A DNA stretch of 64,000 nt from Parcubacteria group bacterium (GTDB taxonomy: Bacteria > Patescibacteriota > Minisyncoccia > Phycocordibacterales > UBA2135): NCBI GenBank assembly GCA_016176785.1, contig JACOWN010000005.1:1202-65201 (forward strand), read 5' to 3'. The first letter of the stretch is position 1, and every line of letters begins with the position of its first letter. Of this stretch, positions 5,186-61,162 are shown one piece after another. The translations under genes and the position numbers were made by a program. The notes beneath the pieces were generated by a model. That model had not been told where the DNA came from and ran no database searches. It saw only the letters and a list, made by a program, of their open reading frames with translations.

Positions 5186-5258
5186 CCGCCCATAGCTCAG
5201 TTGGTAGAGCAGCTCCCTTTTAAGGAGAGGGTCGCAGGTTCGAATCCTGCTGGGCGGA
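5186..5258 (+). tRNA. tRNA-Lys (anticodon TTT)
   Basis: Manual cloverleaf: acceptor CCGCCCA/TGGGCGG, D-stem GCTC/GAGC, anticodon stem GCTCC/GGAGA with one mismatch, loop CTTTTAA (U33, TTT, A37), T-arm GCAGG-TTCGAAT-CCTGC, discriminator A. No encoded CCA. Confidence 0.82.
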
Positions 5259-5328
5259 CAAAAGGAGGTTGGTACGATCACGCAGTCAGGAGAGAAATAC
5301 CGCCTTACAAAACAAGAGGTCTCCTCGG

Positions 5329-5354
5329 TTATCCACTTATCCACAGTATCCACA
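5329..5354 (+). promoter_or_regulatory. Cluster of three tandem DnaA-box-like 9-mers (TTATCCACT, TTATCCACA, gTATCCACA)
   Basis: Read directly: ggTTATCCACTTATCCACAGTATCCACAac. Two are perfect or near-perfect matches to the TTATCCACA consensus. They lie in a 430-bp non-coding, partly AT-rich spacer. Confidence 0.5.
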
Positions 5355-21619: not shown

Positions 21620-21877
21620 AATAATAAAAAATATTTATATAAAAGGATTTTTATTATGATATATCTGTTGATATGTAGATAAGTGGGATTATTTTTACCA
21701 AATTATGCATTTTTTGAACGATTTATTTTTTATATCCTGTTGAAAATATGTGTATAAAAAACATTCTGTATTTTGAAACAACAGGATAATTTATTTTTTC
21801 ATATTATAAAAAATTTTTTTCAACACAGTATCAACAGAAAAAAGTTTCTTATGCACACACTTACGCACAGAAGGAAA
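21620..21877. promoter_or_regulatory. Candidate replication origin / DNA-unwinding region in the dnaA-dnaN spacer
   Basis: 258-bp strongly AT-rich spacer in a 60% GC genome. DnaA-box-like TGTaGATAA (21674-21682) and TTATCCtgT (revcomp at 21781-21789). Inverted CTGTTGAAA/TTTGAAACAACAG repeats. Confidence 0.45.
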
Positions 21878-23254
21878 TTACTGCTGTTGCGCGAACAGAG
21901 ACCGTATTCGTTCCAACTCATCCACAAGAACTGTATCTTTTTTAAGGTCGTTTTTTATTTTGTCGCATGAATGAATAACGGTTGTATGGTCACGTCCGCC
22001 GAGGCGCTGGCCGATGGTCGGGAACGAAATACTCAGATCCTCGCGAAGAATGTACATAATGATTTGCCGCGGTTTTACGATCTCTTTTTTTCGCGTCTTC
22101 TCATAGATGGTTGATTTTTCAATGTTATAGAACTCCGACACGACGTGCACAATATCTTCAACGGAGAGCGTTTTTCTCGGTTTCTCGTTGTTTTTAAGGA
22201 GTGTTTTAACTTCAAGCAAGGCAAGGTCCCGATTTTTGAGCTGCGCTTGGCATACGAGGGCGTTTAAAAGACCTTCAAGCTCCCTGATGCTCCCCTTTAT
22301 GTTTGAGGCGATATATTCAATGATCTCGTCGGACGGGCTAAAGTTGATGTGGCGTGACTTTGTCTTCAAAATAGCGACACGTGATTCAAAATCGGGGTCG
22401 GAGATATCAACTATCATCCCGGCGCCGAACCTGGATTTCAGCCGCTCCTCAAGATTTCCAATGAAATTATAATGCTTGTCCGAAGAAAAAATAATCTGCT
22501 TGTTGTTGTCATACAGCGTGTTGAAGAGATGGAACAGCTCGTCTTGCGTCCCCTGCTTCCCCGAAAGAAATTGAATGTCGTCCATGATAAAAACGTCATA
22601 CTTCCGGTATTTTTCTTTGAAAACGTTGATTTTATTGGCTTGGACGGATGTAATGAGGTCAAGATAGAATTTTTCCGAAGTAATATAGAATACTTTCTTG
22701 TCCCCGTACATCTCTTTAATTTTGTTGCCCGTCGCCTGGAGAAGGTGCGTCTTGCCGAGTCCGGTGCCGCCGTACACAAAGAGCGGGTTGTAAACCGAGC
22801 CGACACTCTTCATGATCGCTTGCGTCGCGGTGTAGGCAAGCTCGTTGAACGGCCCGACAACGAACGTGTCAAACGTATAACGCGGATTCAGATTGTCATC
22901 CTTGTTGATATACAGGTCTTTGAGAGGGAGCTCGCCGTAGAGCTGCGGCGCCGATTCCGCAAAGCCGGGCTTTTGCTGTTCGGTTTTTGAAATAACGATA
23001 TAGTCAATGCCGCGTATGTTTTCGCTGATCATGCGGAGCGATTTGAGGATGAATTTGTGGTACTTGTTTTGAAGCCACTCTTTAACAAACCCGTTCGGCA
23101 CGCCAAGATATACGACGCCGTCCGCCTCTTTGACGATAGAAGTGTTTTTGAACCATGTCGTAAAATTTGCCCGCGAAACGGCGCGTTCAATGTCCGCAAG
23201 AGCCGCATCCCACAACTGTTTGGTGTCGGAGATGTTGTGTTCTTGTTCTGGCAT
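21878..23254 (-). CDS. dnaA: Chromosomal replication initiator DnaA
   Basis: AAA+ Walker A GGTGLGKTHLLQATGN, Walker B IFIMDDIQFL, sensor/box VII, C-terminal DnaA-box binding HTH (DHTTVIHSCDKI). Confidence 0.93.
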   Translation of the reverse strand: MPEQEHNISDTKQLWDAALADIERAVSRANFTTWFKNTSIVKEADGVVYLGVPNGFVKEWLQNKYHKFILKSLRMISENIRGIDYIVISKTEQQKPGFAESAPQLYGELPLKDLYINKDDNLNPRYTFDTFVVGPFNELAYTATQAIMKSVGSVYNPLFVYGGTGLGKTHLLQATGNKIKEMYGDKKVFYITSEKFYLDLITSVQANKINVFKEKYRKYDVFIMDDIQFLSGKQGTQDELFHLFNTLYDNNKQIIFSSDKHYNFIGNLEERLKSRFGAGMIVDISDPDFESRVAILKTKSRHINFSPSDEIIEYIASNIKGSIRELEGLLNALVCQAQLKNRDLALLEVKTLLKNNEKPRKTLSVEDIVHVVSEFYNIEKSTIYEKTRKKEIVKPRQIIMYILREDLSISFPTIGQRLGGRDHTTVIHSCDKIKNDLKKDTVLVDELERIRSLFAQQQ

Positions 23255-51187: not shown

Positions 51188-51338
51188 ACCGTATATTGTA
51201 TGCCGTAACCTTCAGATTTTAGAATTGAAGCACGGTTCAATCCTACCTATCCGAAGGCCAAGGCCTTCGCGCTTAGCGATTAATACTATTCAATATTCAC
51301 AAAGTAGCACAACCGCATTCTTTTTCAAGATGTGGTGC

Positions 51339-51448
51339 CGTTTGTTCAACACCCGATGTTGAACAAACCAAAACCGGCCGTGTCGGCCGGTTTTGGTGCG
51401 GCTGGGTGCCGCTGTTCTTTTTTTGTTCAACATCGGGTGTTGAACAAA
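51339..51448. promoter_or_regulatory. pnp leader / intergenic structured element: 27-bp inverted repeats (TGTTCAACA-cccga-TGTTGAACA and its reverse complement) flanking two GC hairpins
   Basis: GTTTGTTCAACACCCGATGTTGAACAAAC (51339-51367) and TTTGTTCAACATCGGGTGTTGAACAAA (51421-51448). Central hairpin CCAAAACCGGCCG-tgtc-GGCCGGTTTTGG (51367-51396) and GCGGC-tgggt-GCCGC plus a T-run (51397-51420). Confidence 0.5.
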
Positions 51449-51452
51449 AGGG

Positions 51453-52504: not shown

Positions 52505-53422
52505 ATGAAATTAATGTCGCACAATCTTCGGGGACTCAAAAAAGAGTTTTTGGAATATCTTGAAATAGAAAAAGGGCGCGCGGCGCGCACCATTGAATTG
52601 TACGACCAGTATCTCGGCAGGTTTCTCCGCTTCCCCGGCCTCAAAAACGCCGCCGACATCACGGACGAATCGGTGCGTCGTTATCGGCTTGCCTTAAACC
52701 GCGCGGGAATGTCCAAAAAAACGCAGAATTTTTACCTCATTGCGTTGCGGCAGTTTTTGAAGTTTTGTGCGCGCCGCGGCATCGCGTCGCTTCCCGCAGA
52801 ACGCATAGAACTTGCGAAACAAAGCGACCGCGACCTTGACCTCATTTCTTCGGATGAGCTTGAACGCCTGCTCGCCGCGCCGTCCGGTTCCGATGAAAAA
52901 AATCTTCGCGACCGCGCCTTGCTTGAGCTCCTTTTTTCAACCGGTCTTCGCGTTTCGGAACTTTGCGCGCTCTCGCGGCATCTTGACTGGAGCCGCGATG
53001 AGATCTCCGTGCGCGGCAAGGGCGGCAAGGTGCGTCTCGTGTTCCTTTCGCCGCGCGCGAAAAGCGCGGTTAAGGCGTACCTCGCGAAGCGTTCTGACAT
53101 CGGCGACGCGCTCTTCGCGCAGGCGGAGCGTCGTGCGAAAAACAAAAGCGTATCCGAGCCGCGCCGCATCACGCCGCGGCTTGTGGAACGCATCGTGAAG
53201 CACCACGCGATACGGGCCGGCATTGATAAGCGGGTGACGCCGCACATGCTTCGGCACATGTTCGCGACCGACCTCCTCCAAAACGGCGCCGACCTTCGTT
53301 CCGTCCAAGCGCTTCTGGGGCATGCGCACATTGCAACGACACAGGTCTATACGCACGTAACGGACAAGCACCTGAAAGACATCCACCGCGCCTTTCACGG
53401 GAAAGGGCTTGGGGAAAAATAA
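52505..53422 (+). CDS. Tyrosine site-specific recombinase (XerC/XerD-like)
   Basis: N-terminal SAM-like core-binding domain. Catalytic R...K...HMLRH..AT..L..G.DLRSVQALLGHAHIATTQVYTHV with the Tyr nucleophile. Confidence 0.85.
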   Translation: MKLMSHNLRGLKKEFLEYLEIEKGRAARTIELYDQYLGRFLRFPGLKNAADITDESVRRYRLALNRAGMSKKTQNFYLIALRQFLKFCARRGIASLPAERIELAKQSDRDLDLISSDELERLLAAPSGSDEKNLRDRALLELLFSTGLRVSELCALSRHLDWSRDEISVRGKGGKVRLVFLSPRAKSAVKAYLAKRSDIGDALFAQAERRAKNKSVSEPRRITPRLVERIVKHHAIRAGIDKRVTPHMLRHMFATDLLQNGADLRSVQALLGHAHIATTQVYTHVTDKHLKDIHRAFHGKGLGEK

Positions 53423-55872: not shown

Positions 55873-55944
55873 GCACCCGTGGTGAAACGGATATCACAAC
55901 AGGCTTCGGACCTGTCGTTGGGGGTTCGAATCCCTCCGGGTGCA
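55873..55944 (+). tRNA. tRNA-Arg (anticodon TCG)
   Basis: Acceptor GCACCCG/CGGGTGC. D-stem GTGA/TCAC. Anticodon stem ACAGG/CCTGT, loop CTTCGGA. T-arm GGGGG-TTCGAAT-CCCTC (one G-U pair). Discriminator A. Confidence 0.8.
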
Positions 55945-56096
55945 TCAACACGAACAGAGCCGGACGCGGAGCGTCCGGCGACTTTCGTGTTTGCGTCGGG
56001 AGGGATTCGAAAGACGGAGGCGGGGGTACCCCGCAGAATGCATCAACACGAACAGAGCCGGACGCGGAGCGTCCGGCGACTTTCGTGTGTGCGTCG
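55941..56096 (+). repeat. Two ~58-bp direct repeats (55941-55998, 56039-56096) starting in the last 4 nt of tRNA-Arg. Each contains hairpin GCCGGACGC-ggag-GCGTCCGGC.
   Basis: TGCATCAACACGAACAGAGCCGGACGCGGAGCGTCCGGCGACTTTCGTGT(T/G)TGCGTCG read twice. The 40-bp spacer carries an inverted TTCGAATCCCTCC 13-mer identical to the tRNA-Arg T-arm/acceptor junction. Confidence 0.7.
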
Positions 56097-57015: not shown

Positions 57016-57086
57016 GCGGGCATAGTTTAGTGGTAGAACACGACATTGCCAATGTCGAAACGGGGGTTCGATTCCCCCTGCCCGCA
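57016..57086 (+). tRNA. tRNA-Gly (anticodon GCC)
   Basis: Acceptor GCGGGCA/TGCCCGC. Anticodon stem CGACA/TGTCG, loop TTGCCAA. T-arm GGGGG-TTCGATT-CCCCC. Discriminator A. Confidence 0.85.
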
Positions 57087-57334
57087 CAATAGTGGACTTT
57101 TTGCGATTCGGCGCATCAATCGCCGTTTCTATGTCAGAAAAATTGGAGGTTCTAACATCATCTAATTGCCCGCGTAGAGAAATTGAATTTTTTATTGCAG
57201 GGGAATAAATTCTTCTGAAAAATAAACCGTTTTTAAATGTTTTGAAGGAGGTTCTAACATGCCGTTGCAATTTATCAAAGTTTAAAGTAAGTTGGTAATA
57301 GAGCAAAAGAGCCATCCTGTCACAGGAGGAAAAG

Positions 57335-57655
57335 ATGAGGAGCAAGGTCTCAGTCATTTGCTGGTCGATTTTTGCAATTACAGTGATCGGCGCAGGAATC
57401 CTGATTTCAGATGCCTGTAATAGTGATCCAACTGGATGCGGATACGTGTTCGGATTAGGACCAATAGTTTTTTTGATGTATGGCGGTCTCCTTTATCTGC
57501 TCATCCCGCTTGTTGGTATTATCTTTGATGCTTACAAATGGAGGATGTTGAAGGACAAGGGGGTTGGAATTTGGGGAAGAACCGTGGGCACTTCTGTTTC
57601 TTTTGTCATCTCTGTCTGGGCATTCCCACTTTTACTTCTTCTGATCGGATTTTAA
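57335..57655 (+). CDS. Cassette 1 cargo: small 3-TM membrane protein
   Basis: AGGAGG SD 7 nt upstream. Hydrophobic helices VICWSIFAITVIGAGILI, IVFLMYGGLLYLLIPLVGII and SFVISVWAFPLLLLLIGF. Confidence 0.4.
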   Translation: MRSKVSVICWSIFAITVIGAGILISDACNSDPTGCGYVFGLGPIVFLMYGGLLYLLIPLVGIIFDAYKWRMLKDKGVGIWGRTVGTSVSFVISVWAFPLLLLLIGF

Positions 57656-58230
57656 CCAATCAGGCGCACGACCCACATACGGGTACGGCGCCTATTTTTT
57701 GTTGATGAGCTTTATGTACGTTGTGTTTGTTCTCGAATGGTACCCATAAAAATATCTCAGCCTGCTTCTATCAGCGTATTAAAGCGTTTTTGAAGCGTAG
57801 TAAACCATCATTGACTAGACTCATTACCGCCCCCTAGAGAGGTTCTAACCTGTTCTCCTAAAGTGCATAAAAATAACGAGCACAAAGCGGAGCTTTGGGC
57901 GACTATGTTTTTATAGCGGGTAGGGAGAATCGAACCGAGGGCTGGCGAAAGAAATCCATGAGAGTGACCGATCCCCCTGCCCGCACAATAGTGGACTTTT
58001 GACGCCCTCGCGCATCAATCGCCGTTTCTATTTCAGAAATCTTGCGGGTTCTAACATCGTCTCGTTGCCCGTATAGGGAAATGGAATTTTTTATTGACGA
58101 AAAATAAAATATTCTGAAAAAGAAACGGTTTTTTGATGACTTACCAGAGGTTCTAACACGGTTTACATTTGGGACACTATCTGTTAAATTGGTTAATAGA
58201 ATTCAAAGTGCAAGATTATGGAGGGTTATT

Positions 58231-58542
58231 ATGCCTAAAGCAGACGTGGTTCTTGAAATCTATTTTGACATTAATAATCCAGAGAAAACTGTAATAAAAA
58301 CCAACGCCAAGGAAGAAGCACTTGAAGAGATACTTGAAGCATGGCTGTATTGCCAAATTGGACAGGGTAAAGATGAGAGCAAGCCGAACAGACAGGATAC
58401 GTACAAAATAAAAATCCAATTGGATTTAAGCGACGACACTTTCTACACCAACAGCAATACGGGGAACAAAGGACTTACCTGCGGAATCATTATGGACGTG
58501 TTCAAGAGGTTGGGTCAGATCGAGGTTCTTAATCTTTCATAA
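58231..58542 (+). CDS. Cassette 2 cargo: small hydrophilic protein (103 aa)
   Basis: GGAGGG SD. Start at MPKADVV inside the track ORF 58189-58542. Followed by terminator GGCCGACATGTGTCGGCG plus a T-run. Confidence 0.35.
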   Translation: MPKADVVLEIYFDINNPEKTVIKTNAKEEALEEILEAWLYCQIGQGKDESKPNRQDTYKIKIQLDLSDDTFYTNSNTGNKGLTCGIIMDVFKRLGQIEVLNLS

Positions 58543-59099
58543 ATCATCAAGACAAAAAGTTAACGCCGACACATGTCGGCCTTTTTCTTTTAGAAAGGTT
58601 CTAACGTCGTCTATAAAAGTGCACAAGACAACAAAAATACAGGGCTTTTGTCCTGTATTTTTGTTGTCGTTATGCGAGGTAGAGCGAGCAAACTGCTTTG
58701 CTCGCGTGGGGAATCGAAAAGCGGAGCCATCCTGAGCGAGCGAAGCGAGTCGAAGGGGGCGAGCTCGGGGAGGAAGTTCTTAGCGAAGACGAGCGCGAAG
58801 TTTGAGCTTAGAAACTTGACCCCGATTCCCCCTGCCCGCACAGAATTTCATTTTGGGCGCTTCGTCAACGCTTAGGGTGTTTCTAGATCAAAGTTTTTAC
58901 GGGTTCTAACAACGCTCCTTTTCTTGTATAGGGAAGGAGAACTCTATAGAACTTAAAAATTAAAATTTTCTGAAAAACAAACGATTTTTTCATAATTTTG
59001 CAGAGGTTCTAACTTGTATGACGTTGCCTTGTGTTTTTTTTGGTTTGCGTTATATTGAACCTAGAATGCAACTAACTTCATCAAGAAAAGGAGCTCGGA

Positions 59100-59741
59100 A
59101 TGAGCAAGCTTCTCCATATCTTTTTTGCTTTAATGATAGCGATGGGATTGTCATCCACTTCTTCGTTCGCAACTGAACACGACGGGAATCCCAGTCTCTG
59201 CGAAAATCCGTGGGAATCGGAAGGCAGCACGTCGAGTGCGACTGAAATAGGAAGAAGCAGGCGCATCATCTCCGAGTGTAAGGTTGTTAATCCACAAACT
59301 CTGGATATTTCTTCAAACCCCGCTCTTGCTGATTTTTTGGGCGAAATAAAAAAAGATCTGTGGGACACTGAAAGATTGCCCAAAGATGTTCTCTATCGTT
59401 ATACCCTGACGATTATTAACGATTGGGACAAAAATGTTTCTGTAAATCTTTCGAGGTGGGAAGTTGTGCACTCACCGTACACATTGGTAGCGAAAGGTTT
59501 TGTTGTTGATATTCCAGCATGTTCGTATGCTCGCATTCAGTTTCTTTCTCCGTGGGCTCCTGAACTGTATGCTTCCCCCGTTAACATTGGCATGACGACT
59601 AAGGACGGAGAATGGTCAGCAATAGGCGACGGTATAGCAAGTATTCTGACGCCGGTGTGGTACCAGTATTTTTCAGAAGGAATGAATGTTGATCGCCTGC
59701 CTCCAGATGAAACAAAAACAAAGGCGTGTTCTTCAAAGTAA
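59100..59741 (+). CDS. Cassette 3 cargo: secreted protein (signal peptide, 213 aa)
   Basis: AAGGAG SD. Signal peptide MSKLLHIFFALMIAMGLSSTSSFA. Cys residues present. No known motifs. Confidence 0.4.
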   Translation: MSKLLHIFFALMIAMGLSSTSSFATEHDGNPSLCENPWESEGSTSSATEIGRSRRIISECKVVNPQTLDISSNPALADFLGEIKKDLWDTERLPKDVLYRYTLTIINDWDKNVSVNLSRWEVVHSPYTLVAKGFVVDIPACSYARIQFLSPWAPELYASPVNIGMTTKDGEWSAIGDGIASILTPVWYQYFSEGMNVDRLPPDETKTKACSSK

Positions 59742-59949
59742 TAGCCATTTTTGGACAAACGAGCCCTGCGAATAAGTGGGGCTTTTTGTTTAAAAACAGG
59801 TTCTAACTTGTTCTCCTAAAGTGCATAAAAATAACGAGCACAAAGCGGAGCTTTGGGCGACTATGTTTTTATAGCGGGTAGGGAGAATCGAACCGAGGGC
59901 TGGCGAAGCGTATGCAACGCACAAACAATCGATTCGCGGGGATTTTTGT

Positions 59950-60746
59950 GGGAAATTACGTTTCACATGAAAACTTTTGCAAAAGAATGAGAGTATAGTT
60001 TTAATCTTCTGGGGATAACTCTGTGGATTTGTGTATAAAGGACATTGGTTGTTTTTGTCTTTTTGCTCATGATGTCCTATTTGTTCCTTTATTTTCCTGT
60101 GTTTTTATGTTATTCTAAAAAAGACAATCAAAATTAGTTTATGGTTTTCACGTGAAACATAGCGATAGTTTTCACGTGAAAACACTTTTCATGTGTAACA
60201 TACTAGTGAGTTAGTTACATGTGAAATGATTTTTCTGTGTAATAATGAAGTATCTAGATGAACTTAAGAAATTGCGTTTACATTGCGGAGAATATGCCGT
60301 TTTTGGCTCCGGACCGCTTGCGATAAGAGGATTGGTAGAAAACACCGACATTGATCTTGTCGTTAGCGGTGACTTATGGGGGAAGTTAAATAAAGAATAT
60401 CTGAAGCGTTAAAAATCGTAGTTTCATGTGTAACACATGGCTCCGCATAATAAAATCGGAACATTGGGGGAAAATATTGCTTGCCGTTATCTTGAAAATA
60501 GGGGTTTTGATATTATTGAGCGGAATTATAGAAAACCGTGGGGAGAAATTGACATTATTTCCGTAAAAAATGGTTTTCTTCATTTTATTGAGGTAAAAAC
60601 GGTTACACGTGTAACAAGCAATGGTACGCAAAGAGGAGAGTTCCGCCCCGAGGACGCGGTTCACCGGTGGAAACAAGAGAGAATGCGGCGAGTTATACAG
60701 TCATACCTATCTGATTACAAGAAAAGGAATGTTACACGTGTAACTG
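59950..60746. repeat. Nine copies of a CACGTG/CATGTG-centred palindrome (TTTCACGTGAAA / GTTACACGTGTAAC) in 800 bp
   Basis: Copies read at 59950, 60144, 60168, 60186, 60213, 60421 (overlaps the yraN-like ATG), 60601 and 60731. The last two lie inside the CDS and both encode VTRVT. Region GC is ~33-38%. Confidence 0.65.
60245..60412 (+). pseudogene. 56-codon ORF resembling the N-terminus of a minimal nucleotidyltransferase (possible gene fragment)
   Basis: MKYLDELKKLRLHCGEYAVFGSGPLAIRGLVENTDIDLVVSGDLWGKLNKEYLKR. The G[SG]x(9-13)DxD pattern is present but the protein is far too short. Below the ORF-track cutoff and found by reading the sequence. Confidence 0.25.
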
Positions 60747-60853
60747 ATCAAAACTCCGGAGAACAAAATTGGCAGTTTGATATAGTCGCCATTGAACTTA
60801 ATTTAGAACAAAAAACATCAAAAGTTAGATTTCTGGAACAAATGACTTTATAA
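60437..60853 (+). CDS. YraN/UPF0102-family endonuclease-like protein
   Basis: IGTLGENIACRYLENRGFDIIERNYRKPWGEIDIISVKNGFLHFIEVKT is the family signature (PD-(D/E)xK-like core). AT-rich codon usage. Confidence 0.72.
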   Translation: MAPHNKIGTLGENIACRYLENRGFDIIERNYRKPWGEIDIISVKNGFLHFIEVKTVTRVTSNGTQRGEFRPEDAVHRWKQERMRRVIQSYLSDYKKRNVTRVTDQNSGEQNWQFDIVAIELNLEQKTSKVRFLEQMTL

Positions 60854-60943
60854 AGGACATTTGTCCTTTATAAATGTCTTTTACAAAACATTCGGTTGCG
60901 GAACGGTGGTTTTTATTTTTGACGCGTGATATATTTCTTGCAT

Positions 60944-61014
60944 CGGGCTGTAGTATATCGGCAGTACACATGCATGGGGTGCATGTAGGCCGGGTTCGAT
61001 TCCCGGCAGCCCGA
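60944..61014 (+). tRNA. tRNA-Pro (anticodon GGG)
   Basis: Acceptor CGGGCTG/CAGCCCG. D-stem GTAT/GTAC (one G-U pair). Anticodon stem CATGC/GCATG, loop ATGGGGT. T-arm CCGGG-TTCGATT-CCCGG. Discriminator A. Confidence 0.78.
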
Positions 61015-61162
61015 ACGCAGTGAGGGATGAGCAGGCAAACTGCTTTGCCTGCGTCCGGAATCGAAAGCCGGAGCATCCCGCCAAGGGCGGGAGCGAGGCG
61101 GGGTCGCAAGTACTTATGAGCGGAGCGAATTAGTAACTTGTGACCGATTCCCGGCAGCCCGA
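61015..61162 (+). mobile_element. 130-bp insertion remnant flanked by 18-bp direct repeat of the tRNA-Pro 3' end (60997-61014 and 61145-61162). Homologous to the A' arm of the tRNA-Gly array.
   Basis: CGATTCCCGGCAGCCCGA read twice. Internal GAGCAGGCAAACTGCTTTGCCTGCGTCCGGAATCGAAAGCCGGAGCATCCC (61029-61079) is ~80% identical to 58683-58733. Confidence 0.6.

Follow-up and report, generated by a model that had tools for sequence, protein, structure and literature searches.

Tandem single-gene cassettes behind a tRNA-Gly gene in a Parcubacteria group bacterium, and similarly framed cassettes in other genomes

A stretch of 64,000 nucleotides from the genome of a Parcubacteria group bacterium (GenBank assembly GCA_016176785.1, contig JACOWN010000005.1, positions 1,202 to 65,201; here termed ‘the window’, and numbered from its own first base) carries at positions 57016-59907 a tRNA-Gly(GCC) gene followed by three single-gene cassettes, each of which consists of a conserved left module (B), a promoter-like stretch, an open reading frame (ORF) with its terminator, and a short right end (R). 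Bacteria of the candidate phyla radiation (CPR) have very small genomes and live as episymbionts, and little is known of how they gain and exchange genes. The anatomy of this array, the recurrence of its frame in other genomes and the manner in which its units may have been acquired are considered here. A first-pass annotation, made from the sequence alone, had described the region as a tandem array of single-gene units of foreign composition, placed next to a tRNA and bounded by reiterated short sites, with no recombinase gene among them; each of these points is borne out in the window, the last of them by the ORF list and by homology and Pfam scans. The reported fall in GC content is likewise real, from 55.7% in the host DNA before the array to 42.6% inside it. 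The parts of the array are as follows (the left junction and the three right ends being read from the sequence itself):

57016-57086/87, plus strand: tRNA-Gly(GCC) gene (ARAGORN; Rfam tRNA, 75.2 bits), discriminator A at 57086
57084-57087, plus strand: GCAC, the left junction of the array
57088-57258, plus strand: B1, conserved left module of cassette 1, with GGTTCTAAC at 57148-57156 and 57250-57258
57259-57840, plus strand: cargo 1 stretch, with a promoter-like TTGCAA-17-TAAGTT recognized by eye
57335-57655, plus strand: cargo 1 ORF, 106 amino acids, hydrophobic segments by eye, no Pfam family
Near 57661-57700, plus strand: terminator-like hairpin of cargo 1
57841-57868, plus strand: R1, 28-nt right end, GGTTCTAACCTGTTCTCCTAAAGTGCAT
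57869-57986, plus strand: T-loop mini-insert 1, with an inverted tRNA-Gly 3'-like 21-mer at 57916-57936
57968-57986, plus strand: direct tRNA 3' copy in mini-insert 1, last bases GCAC
57987-58157, plus strand: B2, left module of cassette 2, with GGTTCTAAC at 58047-58055 and 58149-58157
58158-58596, plus strand: cargo 2 stretch, with a promoter-like TTTACA-17-TAAATT at 58162-58190, found by a scan
58231-58542, plus strand: cargo 2 ORF, 103 amino acids, no Pfam family; terminator at 58565-58580
58597-58624, plus strand: R2, right end, GGTTCTAACGTCGTCTATAAAAGTGCAC
58625-58841, plus strand: T-loop mini-insert 2, a hairpin (58627-58668) and then GC-rich filler
Near 58708-58718: inverted T-arm-like GGGGAATCGAA in mini-insert 2
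58823-58841, plus strand: direct tRNA-Gly 3' copy in mini-insert 2
58842-59013, plus strand: B3, diverged left module of cassette 3, with GGTTCTAAC at 58902-58910 and 59005-59013
59014-59798, plus strand: cargo 3 stretch, with a promoter-like site recognized by eye
59100-59741, plus strand: cargo 3 ORF, 213 amino acids, N-terminal signal-peptide-like segment, no Pfam family; terminator at 59761-59784
59799-59826, plus strand: R3, right end, GGTTCTAACTTGTTCTCCTAAAGTGCAT
59827-59907, plus strand: T-loop mini-insert 3, truncated in the window, with an inverted tRNA-like 21-mer at 59874-59894

Two kinds of repeat punctuate the array. The motif GGTTCTAAC is present nine times in the 64-kb window, always on the plus strand, always between 57148 and 59807 and three times in each cassette; shuffling predicts 0.23 copies, and none of 100 shuffles reached nine. 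The 17-mer GATTCCCCCTGCCCGCA from the 3' end of the tRNA-Gly gene recurs exactly at 58824-58840 and, shifted by one base, at 57969-57985 (CCGATCCCCCTGCCCGCA), so that the two tRNA copies noted in the first pass hold up, the second of them only with this displacement. Inverted copies with three mismatches each, the kind of repeat that was overlooked at the first pass in mini-inserts 1 and 3, are found at 57915-57931 and 59873-59889; the search returned five matches in all, where 0.11 would be expected. A repeat finder additionally reports 21-nt arms that are 90% complementary to the tRNA 3' end, a 58-nt block that is present three times in the array, and a match of 81% identity over 187 nt between B1 and B2, of which B3 is a more distant copy.

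Closer definition of the units altered several of the limits that had been drawn for them. The ‘leader’ of about 240 bp does contain a shared module, and the conserved part of it is only 171-172 nt long, extending from the base after GCAC to the end of the second GGTTCTAAC; the following 75-87 nt are a cargo-specific promoter-like stretch and 5' untranslated region, with a Shine-Dalgarno site. The ‘trailer’ repeats at 57840-57949 and 59798-59907 are indeed 99% identical over 110 nt, and each is a composite of the 28-nt R, common to all three cassettes, and a separate mini-insert (cassette 2 possesses R, followed by a different tail). The three ORFs stand as listed, as do the terminators after the second and third, the first being followed by a hairpin that is only terminator-like. 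Finally, the units are bounded by short reiterated sites as claimed, with the boundary lying directly after ...GCA(C) and not at the tRNA 19-mer: in most of the other arrays described below, R abuts B with no tRNA copy between them.

Within B, the order of elements is (C)A-NTAGTGGACTTTT, a variable GC hairpin, TTTCTATTTCAGAAAT, the first GGTTCTAAC, CCCGTATAGGG, an inverted repeat of A/T, TTCTGAAAAAGAAA and the second GGTTCTAAC; short palindromes and a terminator-like hairpin with a T-run are also present. R has the layout GGTTCTAAC-N13-AAAGTGCA-C/T. Where cassettes abut, the junction reads TAAAAGTGCAC-ACTA-GTGGACTTTTA, an imperfect inverted repeat of 10-11 bp around a short spacer; three directly oriented copies of GGTTCTAAC flank it, one at a distance of 15 nt on the left and the other two at 60 and 162 nt on the right.

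The same frame was sought elsewhere with a search pattern composed of the two B motifs and their spacing, which was run against a one-genome-per-species collection, JGI/ENA metagenome contigs and viral contigs. The genome collection yielded 23 matches (17 of them with the full grammar), and the metagenome contigs yielded 72, about 52 of them true and mainly from groundwater. The resulting set of some 70 loci of 1-14 kb (numbered with the prefix L), from metagenome-assembled genomes (MAGs) of Parcubacteria and from groundwater metagenomes, holds 80 cassettes. Carriers from the genome collection that bear a specific label belong to Sungiibacteriota, Giovannonibacteria, Harrisonbacteria and Anderseniibacteriota, which are candidate phyla of the Parcubacteria group; the remainder are labelled Patescibacteria, Parcubacteria or, in some third-party assemblies, Saccharibacteria. 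A genome may carry two arrays, as exemplified by L004 and L008, found behind different tRNAs in one MAG, and by contig L090, which holds both of its arrays itself. The first-pass annotation would have been contradicted by repeats confined to this region and a region invariant in content; the repeat units do occur elsewhere, and the cassettes that they enclose vary. Five scans of IMG/VR viral contigs with B and R patterns gave only chance matches, and a BLAST search with B2 against phage and plasmid collections gave none at all; on these searches a viral or plasmid origin was rejected.

Across these loci the dimensions of the frame scarcely vary. Of 49 scored B copies, 47 have their first motif at a distance of 60 nt from GCAC; the spacing between the two motifs, in 61 unique B copies, is 102 nt (39 copies), 103 nt (18) or 101 nt (3), and hence 102-103 nt in 57; and R measures 28 nt in all 53 unique copies, with the consensus AGGTTCTAACgTcGTCTATaAAAGTGCAC. 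The 49 scored B copies start just after GCAC or, rarely, ACAC. An intact tRNA gene directly precedes 26 of the 61 unique B copies (Gly-GCC in nine cases, Gly-CCC in six, Gly-TCC in five, Arg-GCG in two, and Arg-TCG, Val-CAC, Val-GAC and Tyr-GTA in one each), and most of the others are preceded by an R, an R-like end or a partial piece of a tRNA 3' end. Among the loci examined, no tRNA that ends otherwise than in ...GCA (Pro, Thr, Glu, Cys and others) is occupied, nor are the Phe and Lys tRNA genes in which GCA forms the last bases before the flank. Twelve tRNA-Gly genes are empty in other genomes, the same tRNA species being occupied in some genomes and vacant in others.

Several comparisons bear on the origin of the individual units. 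B2 is 84-86% identical to B copies from other candidate phyla, versus 79% to B1 and 65% to B3 in its own array (the B modules of the window share 58-79% identity with each other), and the housekeeping DNA of a syntenic relative, L010, can be matched to that of the window only in short patches of 67-69%. A counterpart of the cargo 2 cassette, promoter-like site and terminator included, is present at 82.5% nucleotide identity in another array (L053), and the homology between the two stops at GCAC on both sides. Another cargo family is found in three contexts: behind tRNA-Gly(TCC) in L057, behind tRNA-Gly(GCC) in L075 and within the array of L013. L057 and L075 form a mosaic, in which the tRNA and left B differ densely, the cargo differs sparsely and the next 5.2 kb are identical; the partner contigs L083 and L090 end where that identity begins, and the pattern is the expected assembly effect of a cassette that is repeated behind two tRNA genes. 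Taken as sequence comparisons, these observations suggest that the units of the array are foreign and were acquired independently.

Logan contigs of related samples (1-1.7 kb, found by looking up the exact proteins) break at the B and trailer repeats, and record several variants of the junctions. In one, the tRNA 3' copy at 57955-57984 is joined straight to the right flank at 59908; in another, the third tail is longer by 97 nt, which include a fourth copy of the tRNA 3' end as well as GC-rich filler, and only then reaches that flank; and variants of mini-insert 1 carry 62-64 nt of extra GC-rich filler, an insertion in the trailer repeat that varies between strains (L037-L040 compared with the window). 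In L037 the path runs from cassette 3 through the fourth tRNA copy into B2, which might represent the junction of a circle or of a tandem.

The cargo itself was delimited in all 80 cassettes from the second B motif to the next R. It spans a median of about 620 bp and is shorter than 1.2 kb in 69 cassettes; it lies on the minus strand in L005, L006 and L017. Removal of near-identical copies leaves, for the loci other than the window, 68 non-redundant proteins, which represent 67 families. In a Pfam scan of these proteins together with the three ORFs of the window (71 in all), most had no match, and the matches obtained, which include an alpha/beta hydrolase, SPFH, a sodium:solute symporter, glycosyltransferases, a kinase and NT5C, are one-off except for Peptidase_M78, with two members. 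Partners of the IrrE/M78 proteins within the cargo are an HTH domain, a PIN-like DUF4411 protein or a ‘Beta protein’. One protein has a DDE (rve) domain; domains of tyrosine recombinases, serine recombinases and Y1/HUH enzymes are absent from all 71. One larger cassette contains an ABC-transporter operon. Several genes share a cassette at L095 (400-8130), L107 (1420-4060) and L080: besides the IrrE/M78 pairs just named, there is a kinase accompanied by a PP2C-like protein, and a TrmB-like regulator accompanied by an ABC transporter, these being recognized by eye. Such cassettes imply that the frame can carry operons and modules that are toxin-antitoxin-like or possibly defence-related.

The mini-inserts that follow R in the window have relatives behind other tRNA genes. 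The insert of 127 nt behind tRNA-Pro (60943-61016) comprises a hairpin, an inverted copy of the T-loop and T-stem of that tRNA, and GC-rich filler; after it stands a direct copy, 19 nt long, of the 3' end of tRNA-Pro, which starts inside the T-loop. Apart from this one, which lies within 60943-61162, similar mini-inserts are present behind tRNA-Arg (55873-56096; here the duplicated piece is the downstream flank and not the tRNA 3' end) and behind tRNA-Gly(TCC) in L074 (1987-2245). They constitute a family of 100-200 nt that stands after an intact tRNA and contains an inverted T-loop/T-stem motif, GGAATCGAA-AG-N-CGGAGC; mini-insert 2 is 85% identical to the sequence immediately after tRNA-Gly(TCC) in L074, and 83% identical to 61029-61074 behind tRNA-Pro. 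The sequences that follow R1, R2 and R3 fit this description, and the reiterated tRNA-Gly 19-mers therefore belong to a second family, that of the mini-inserts; and since each of their tRNA copies ends in ...GCAC, each provides an extra docking point for a B cassette. GC-rich inserts of a further kind, 30-100 nt long and containing words such as cttcgc...gcgaagg, split B and R at fixed points (between GGTTCT and AAC, and between CCCG and TATAGGG), as in L005 (5620-5700), L006 (6880-7030), L014 on the minus strand (2380-2500 and 1070-1210) and L017 (2130-2250); the filler of 62-64 nt that varies between strains in the trailer repeat is a member of this group.

The possibility that B acts as a structured RNA, for example a riboswitch-type leader, is rejected, as covariation and an Rfam match are both lacking: Rfam at E<=1 recognized only tRNAs and nothing in B, and RNAalifold on 23 B copies produced -1.8 kcal/mol, no compensatory pairs and no consensus structure. 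Four short inverted repeats in B are kept in 70-87% of copies with few double changes, helices drawn by hand are 81-84% paired, and the variable GC-rich hairpin 15-40 nt inside the left end is 70-79% paired, again with few compensatory changes in either; these repeats would fit small hairpins or dyad protein sites better than structured RNA. One-nucleotide indels in the B alignment argue that the module is not protein-coding. The right end shows no conserved hairpin, and cassettes with cargo on the minus strand have none there. Folded as a single strand, the R-B junction reaches -6.7 kcal/mol (z -0.6), no better than shuffles; only the palindrome at 57916-57986 in mini-insert 1 (-11.2 kcal/mol, z -1.9) exceeds them, and that modestly, so that hairpins of the attC type are rejected for these junctions.

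The balance of probability tips slightly towards serial, site-specific insertion beside ...GCA, in which an enzyme whose gene lies elsewhere would act on non-autonomous single-gene cassettes, members of a family with a wide distribution in the Parcubacteria group. From the anatomy we infer a cycle in which a cassette would be excised with its R joined to its B, creating a junction (AAAAGTGCAC-N4-GTGGACTTTT) whose 10-bp imperfect inverted repeat resembles a recombinase core; the three direct copies of GGTTCTAAC that flank this core would bind the recombinase or an accessory protein, and the motif is a plausible candidate for an ‘arm site’. The cassette would then be inserted, in a single orientation, immediately 3' of a terminal ...GCA(C), whether that of a tRNA gene, of a copied tRNA 3' end or of the R of another cassette. 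Since each insertion would supply a fresh ...GCA(C), carried at the right end of the newcomer, arrays would grow by further insertions in series; and the enzyme, being absent from the cassettes, would have to be provided in trans, either by a helper element or by a gene located elsewhere in the genome. This mechanism is preferred because the layout of R and B resembles that of a recombinase core with accessory or arm sites.

A number of observations weigh against serial insertion of this kind. No recombinase is found in the 80 cassettes or in the roughly 70 loci of 1-14 kb, and an autonomous version with the same attachment (att)-like sites is absent from the cassettes, the viral contigs and the phage and plasmid collections. 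There are no circular contigs, and the junction in L037 is only suggestive, since its path crosses a 35-nt repeat in a k-mer assembly and may be a mis-path. Mosaics (the first and third trailers identical at 99% though B1 and B3 differ, and the gradient between L057 and L075) show that homologous recombination also reshuffles the arrays. Lastly, target and cassette ends have only GCA(C) in common, which is short for the overlap of a classical tyrosine recombinase, and nothing is conserved on the right side of the insertion point; these two features together weaken the reading as a classical tyrosine integrase and keep a single-strand enzyme of the HUH type in play.

According to that alternative, which is judged unlikely, the cassettes would be non-autonomous relatives of peel-and-paste or rolling-circle elements (IS91-like elements, or palindrome-associated transposable elements (PATEs) of the IS200/IS605 type) with a Y1/HUH transposase elsewhere: single-stranded DNA would be cut 3' of a guide-recognized GCAC at the left flank and at the right end, and a single-stranded circle would be reinserted 3' of another GCAC. 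Much of the anatomy is accommodated in this way, including insertion that is always 3' of the same 3-4-nt word and always in one orientation, the lack of target duplications and terminal inverted repeats, a right end that closes with the same word (which would explain head-to-tail arrays), a target without any sequence requirement on its right, the GC-rich hairpin inside the left end with some compensatory change, and an enzyme outside the cassettes, as is the case for PATEs. However, it does not anticipate a right end devoid of a conserved hairpin or a conserved 10-bp inverted repeat across the R-B junction, and strong conservation of the sequence over 170 nt, together with three 9-mers in direct orientation, is unlike the known ends of IS200/IS605 elements. 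Moreover, the heads of arrays are always tRNA ends, which is more than GCAC alone can explain, and no TnpA-like gene was seen in any locus.

A further alternative, which we regard as equally improbable, dispenses with a dedicated system altogether: B and R would be conserved functional DNA behind tRNAs (for example regions of insulator, terminator or regulatory function to which proteins bind), and cassettes would be swapped by homologous recombination after DNA uptake, with B, R and the tRNA serving as homology arms between arrays and between cells. The mosaicism already described (trailers 1 and 3 alike beside differing B modules, L057 and L075 identical only downstream of the left B) speaks in its favour, as does the lack of a recombinase linked to any array, and the palindromes and the terminator-like hairpin with its T-run in B could be operator sites. 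Yet such exchange needs a B/R frame that already exists, and leaves unexplained both the first insertions at the same nucleotide behind Gly, Arg, Val and Tyr tRNAs and the 84-86% identity of B across candidate phyla whose housekeeping DNA can barely be aligned. An R after each gene's terminator and cargo on the minus strand are, in addition, a poor fit to a simple promoter or operator role.

The tyrosine recombinase at 52505-53422 had been noted at the first pass as the nearest to the array, and as a linked enzyme it has been rejected. It is a XerC/D-type protein with Phage_integrase and SAM_1 domains and without an arm-binding domain (Pfam), it lies 3.6 kb from the array, and it belongs to an rpsO-xer-cca synteny block that is shared with the relative L010. 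A phmmer search with this protein against all ORFs of at least 90 amino acids in the loci recovered only the L010 orthologue, and no paralogue in the window. That a host recombinase of this type moves the cassettes from a distance, as in integrative mobile elements exploiting Xer (IMEX) or the pdif modules of Acinetobacter, with B as an accessory region like the arms of about 180 bp at cer and psi, seems very improbable. Such an enzyme would act in trans from outside the cassettes, as the lack of a cassette-borne recombinase requires, at the R-B junction an inverted repeat surrounds a short spacer, with conservation extending for some 170 bp to one side but not to the other, and the Xer protein of the window has the Phage_integrase and SAM_1 domains. 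Against this, Xer is near the array in just 2 of about 70 loci, in both as part of the housekeeping synteny; pdif sites alternate in orientation while the sites of the array are all direct; the right half-site of the target is not conserved; and the R-B core appears unlike the known dif sites. The weakest alternative, an old local tandem duplication or an immobile artefact of repeat assembly, can hardly be credited, for although repeats of 110-190 nt break short-read assemblies, Logan contigs stop at the B and trailer repeats, and the window and those contigs differ by indels of 64 and 97 nt at repeat edges, it is contradicted by the copies elsewhere and by the pattern of B identity (58-79% among the window's own modules, up to 86% to other phyla), by the three unrelated cargo genes, by independent assembly of the same architecture in dozens of projects, and by indels bounded by only 2-6 nt of identity, which is too short for k-mer collapse.

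Clustering of ORFs identifies as recurrent neighbours of the arrays small GIY-YIG ORFs and a set of housekeeping genes from tRNA-rich blocks of conserved synteny, namely those for YraN, HU, LepA, RNase Y and an FtsB-like protein. In the window, a gene for the YraN/UPF0102 nuclease fold (60437-60853) lies between the array and tRNA-Pro; the yraN-tRNA-Pro pair occurs near arrays in eight other loci, and YraN was rejected as an array-specific partner in favour of conserved synteny of that pair. The GIY-YIG ORFs (79-120 amino acids; PF01541, E 9e-17), which are the most recurrent neighbours, are found at about ten unique loci, including L014 (1236-1475, minus strand), L017 (45-284), L001 (1115-1369) and L008 (5873-6232), and either end at the 5' edge of the array tRNA or stand in for the initial 39 nt of B, immediately ahead of TCGCCGTTTCTATTTC. 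We read them as separate selfish inserts, with a role in cassette movement as a possibility.

Elsewhere in the window a few unrelated features were encountered. Palindromes resembling parS (TTTCACGTGAAA and variants) are clustered at 59950-60750, in a stretch of 34-40% GC between the array and yraN and partly within yraN; TGTTTCACGTGAAACA has four matches at <=3 mismatches in this cluster, where 0.41 would be expected. ARAGORN reports a tRNA-Stop(tta) at 5186-5259, which is probably a tRNA-Lys(UUU), the anticodon loop reading CTTTTAA if the stem is shifted by one base. DnaA-box-like 9-mers occur as three tandem copies at 5329-5354 and as four more at 21674-21926, in a stretch of 44% GC, and an inverted repeat with 41-nt arms (85% complementary, 32 nt apart) occupies 51338-51451, in the intergenic region after a PNPase-like gene.

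If the cassettes do move as proposed, they would be one of the chief ways in which accessory genes flow through these tiny genomes, delivering membrane and secreted proteins, toxin-antitoxin-like pairs and transporters; the cargo consists mostly of surface-exposed or uncharacterized proteins, besides such pairs and transporters. A cassette frame that spans phyla and stacks foreign genes behind tRNAs would be a concrete and searchable mechanism of exchange, and the spacing of GGTTCTAAC together with the 28-nt R offers a sequence handle by which the accessory gene pool could be catalogued from metagenomes. The recombinase may recognize the end of a tRNA gene that has only about 3-4 nt in common with the cassette ends, which would be of interest to recombination biology and to genome engineering. 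It is tentatively proposed, with less assurance than the insertion process itself, that the Parcubacteria, and perhaps the wider CPR, possess a gene-cassette capture system of their own, akin to an integron in its working though not in its construction, in which cassettes with their own promoters dock at tRNA 3' ends by way of a site of about 200 bp (R and B, with three copies of GGTTCTAAC) and an unlinked recombinase; full-text searches of the literature found no description of it.

One resemblance suggested at the first pass was to integrons. Like integrons and clusters of attC sites lacking integron-integrases (CALINs), these are head-to-tail arrays of mostly single, unrelated genes, largely without known function, with one recombination site per cassette, no cassette-borne recombinase and a variable number of cassettes. 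The analogy nevertheless fails in several respects. No intI or other recombinase is adjacent in about 70 arrays, which are anchored at tRNA 3' ends and can be several to a genome. An attC site is an imperfect palindrome of 57-141 nt with an inverse core RYYYAAC and a core GTTRRRY, whereas the site here measures about 200 bp (R and B) and contains three GGTTCTAAC copies in direct orientation, with no inverse-core partner and no convincing hairpin at the junctions; GTTCTAAC matches neither consensus. In place of mostly promoterless cassettes read from the Pc promoter of a platform, there are cassettes with promoter-like stretches and terminators and with cargo on either strand, and the promoter-like site of cassette 2 (58162-58190) is conserved together with its cargo in L053. 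Judged by its sequence, the array is not an integron, the features that define one being absent.

The arrays differ from tRNA-borne islands and prophages in having no integrase gene inside the element beside the att site; direct repeats of the tRNA 3' end are present in the window at 57070, 57969 and 58824, with a fourth in the Logan contigs, and most other arrays share only GCA(C) at their R-B junctions. As in cis-mobilizable elements (CIMEs), both ends of a unit bear att-like sites and genes for recombination are lacking; in contrast to CIMEs, no cognate autonomous element with the same att sites was found in the cassettes and collections searched. The tycheposons of Prochlorococcus islands and their cargo-only remnants reportedly offer a parallel in another streamlined genome, with insertion at tRNAs and cargo segments that are split by partial tRNA copies and in many cases lack a recombinase; tycheposons are said to be kilobase-sized and to have hallmark tyrosine or serine recombinases and replication genes. 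In contrast, no autonomous element or protein homology was found here, and the B/R frame with GGTTCTAAC is without counterpart there.

In the ssrA islands of Dehalococcoides (PMC3146451), as in the window, reiterated 3' ends of a small RNA delimit tandem units, some of which lack an integrase and are served in trans. Those units are remnants of larger elements with a cognate integrase at the same site (PMC3146451), of which none was found here, whereas the present units are of about 1 kb, number in the dozens and are joined for the most part through R and not through a tRNA copy. Like the IS200/IS605 PATEs, the cassettes are inserted in a single orientation 3' of a short word that does not vary, show neither target duplication nor inverted terminal repeats, and would be served by an enzyme in trans; PATEs, however, carry no cargo and have subterminal hairpins at both ends, whereas here a gene is carried and one end is conserved over 172 nt, with direct 9-mers. 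The Xer-dependent pdif elements of Acinetobacter are likewise small gene modules that lack their own recombinase and are moved by means of short recombination sites, and differ in being borne on plasmids with sites of alternating orientation, whereas the sites of the Parcubacteria arrays are direct, chromosomal and anchored at tRNA genes.

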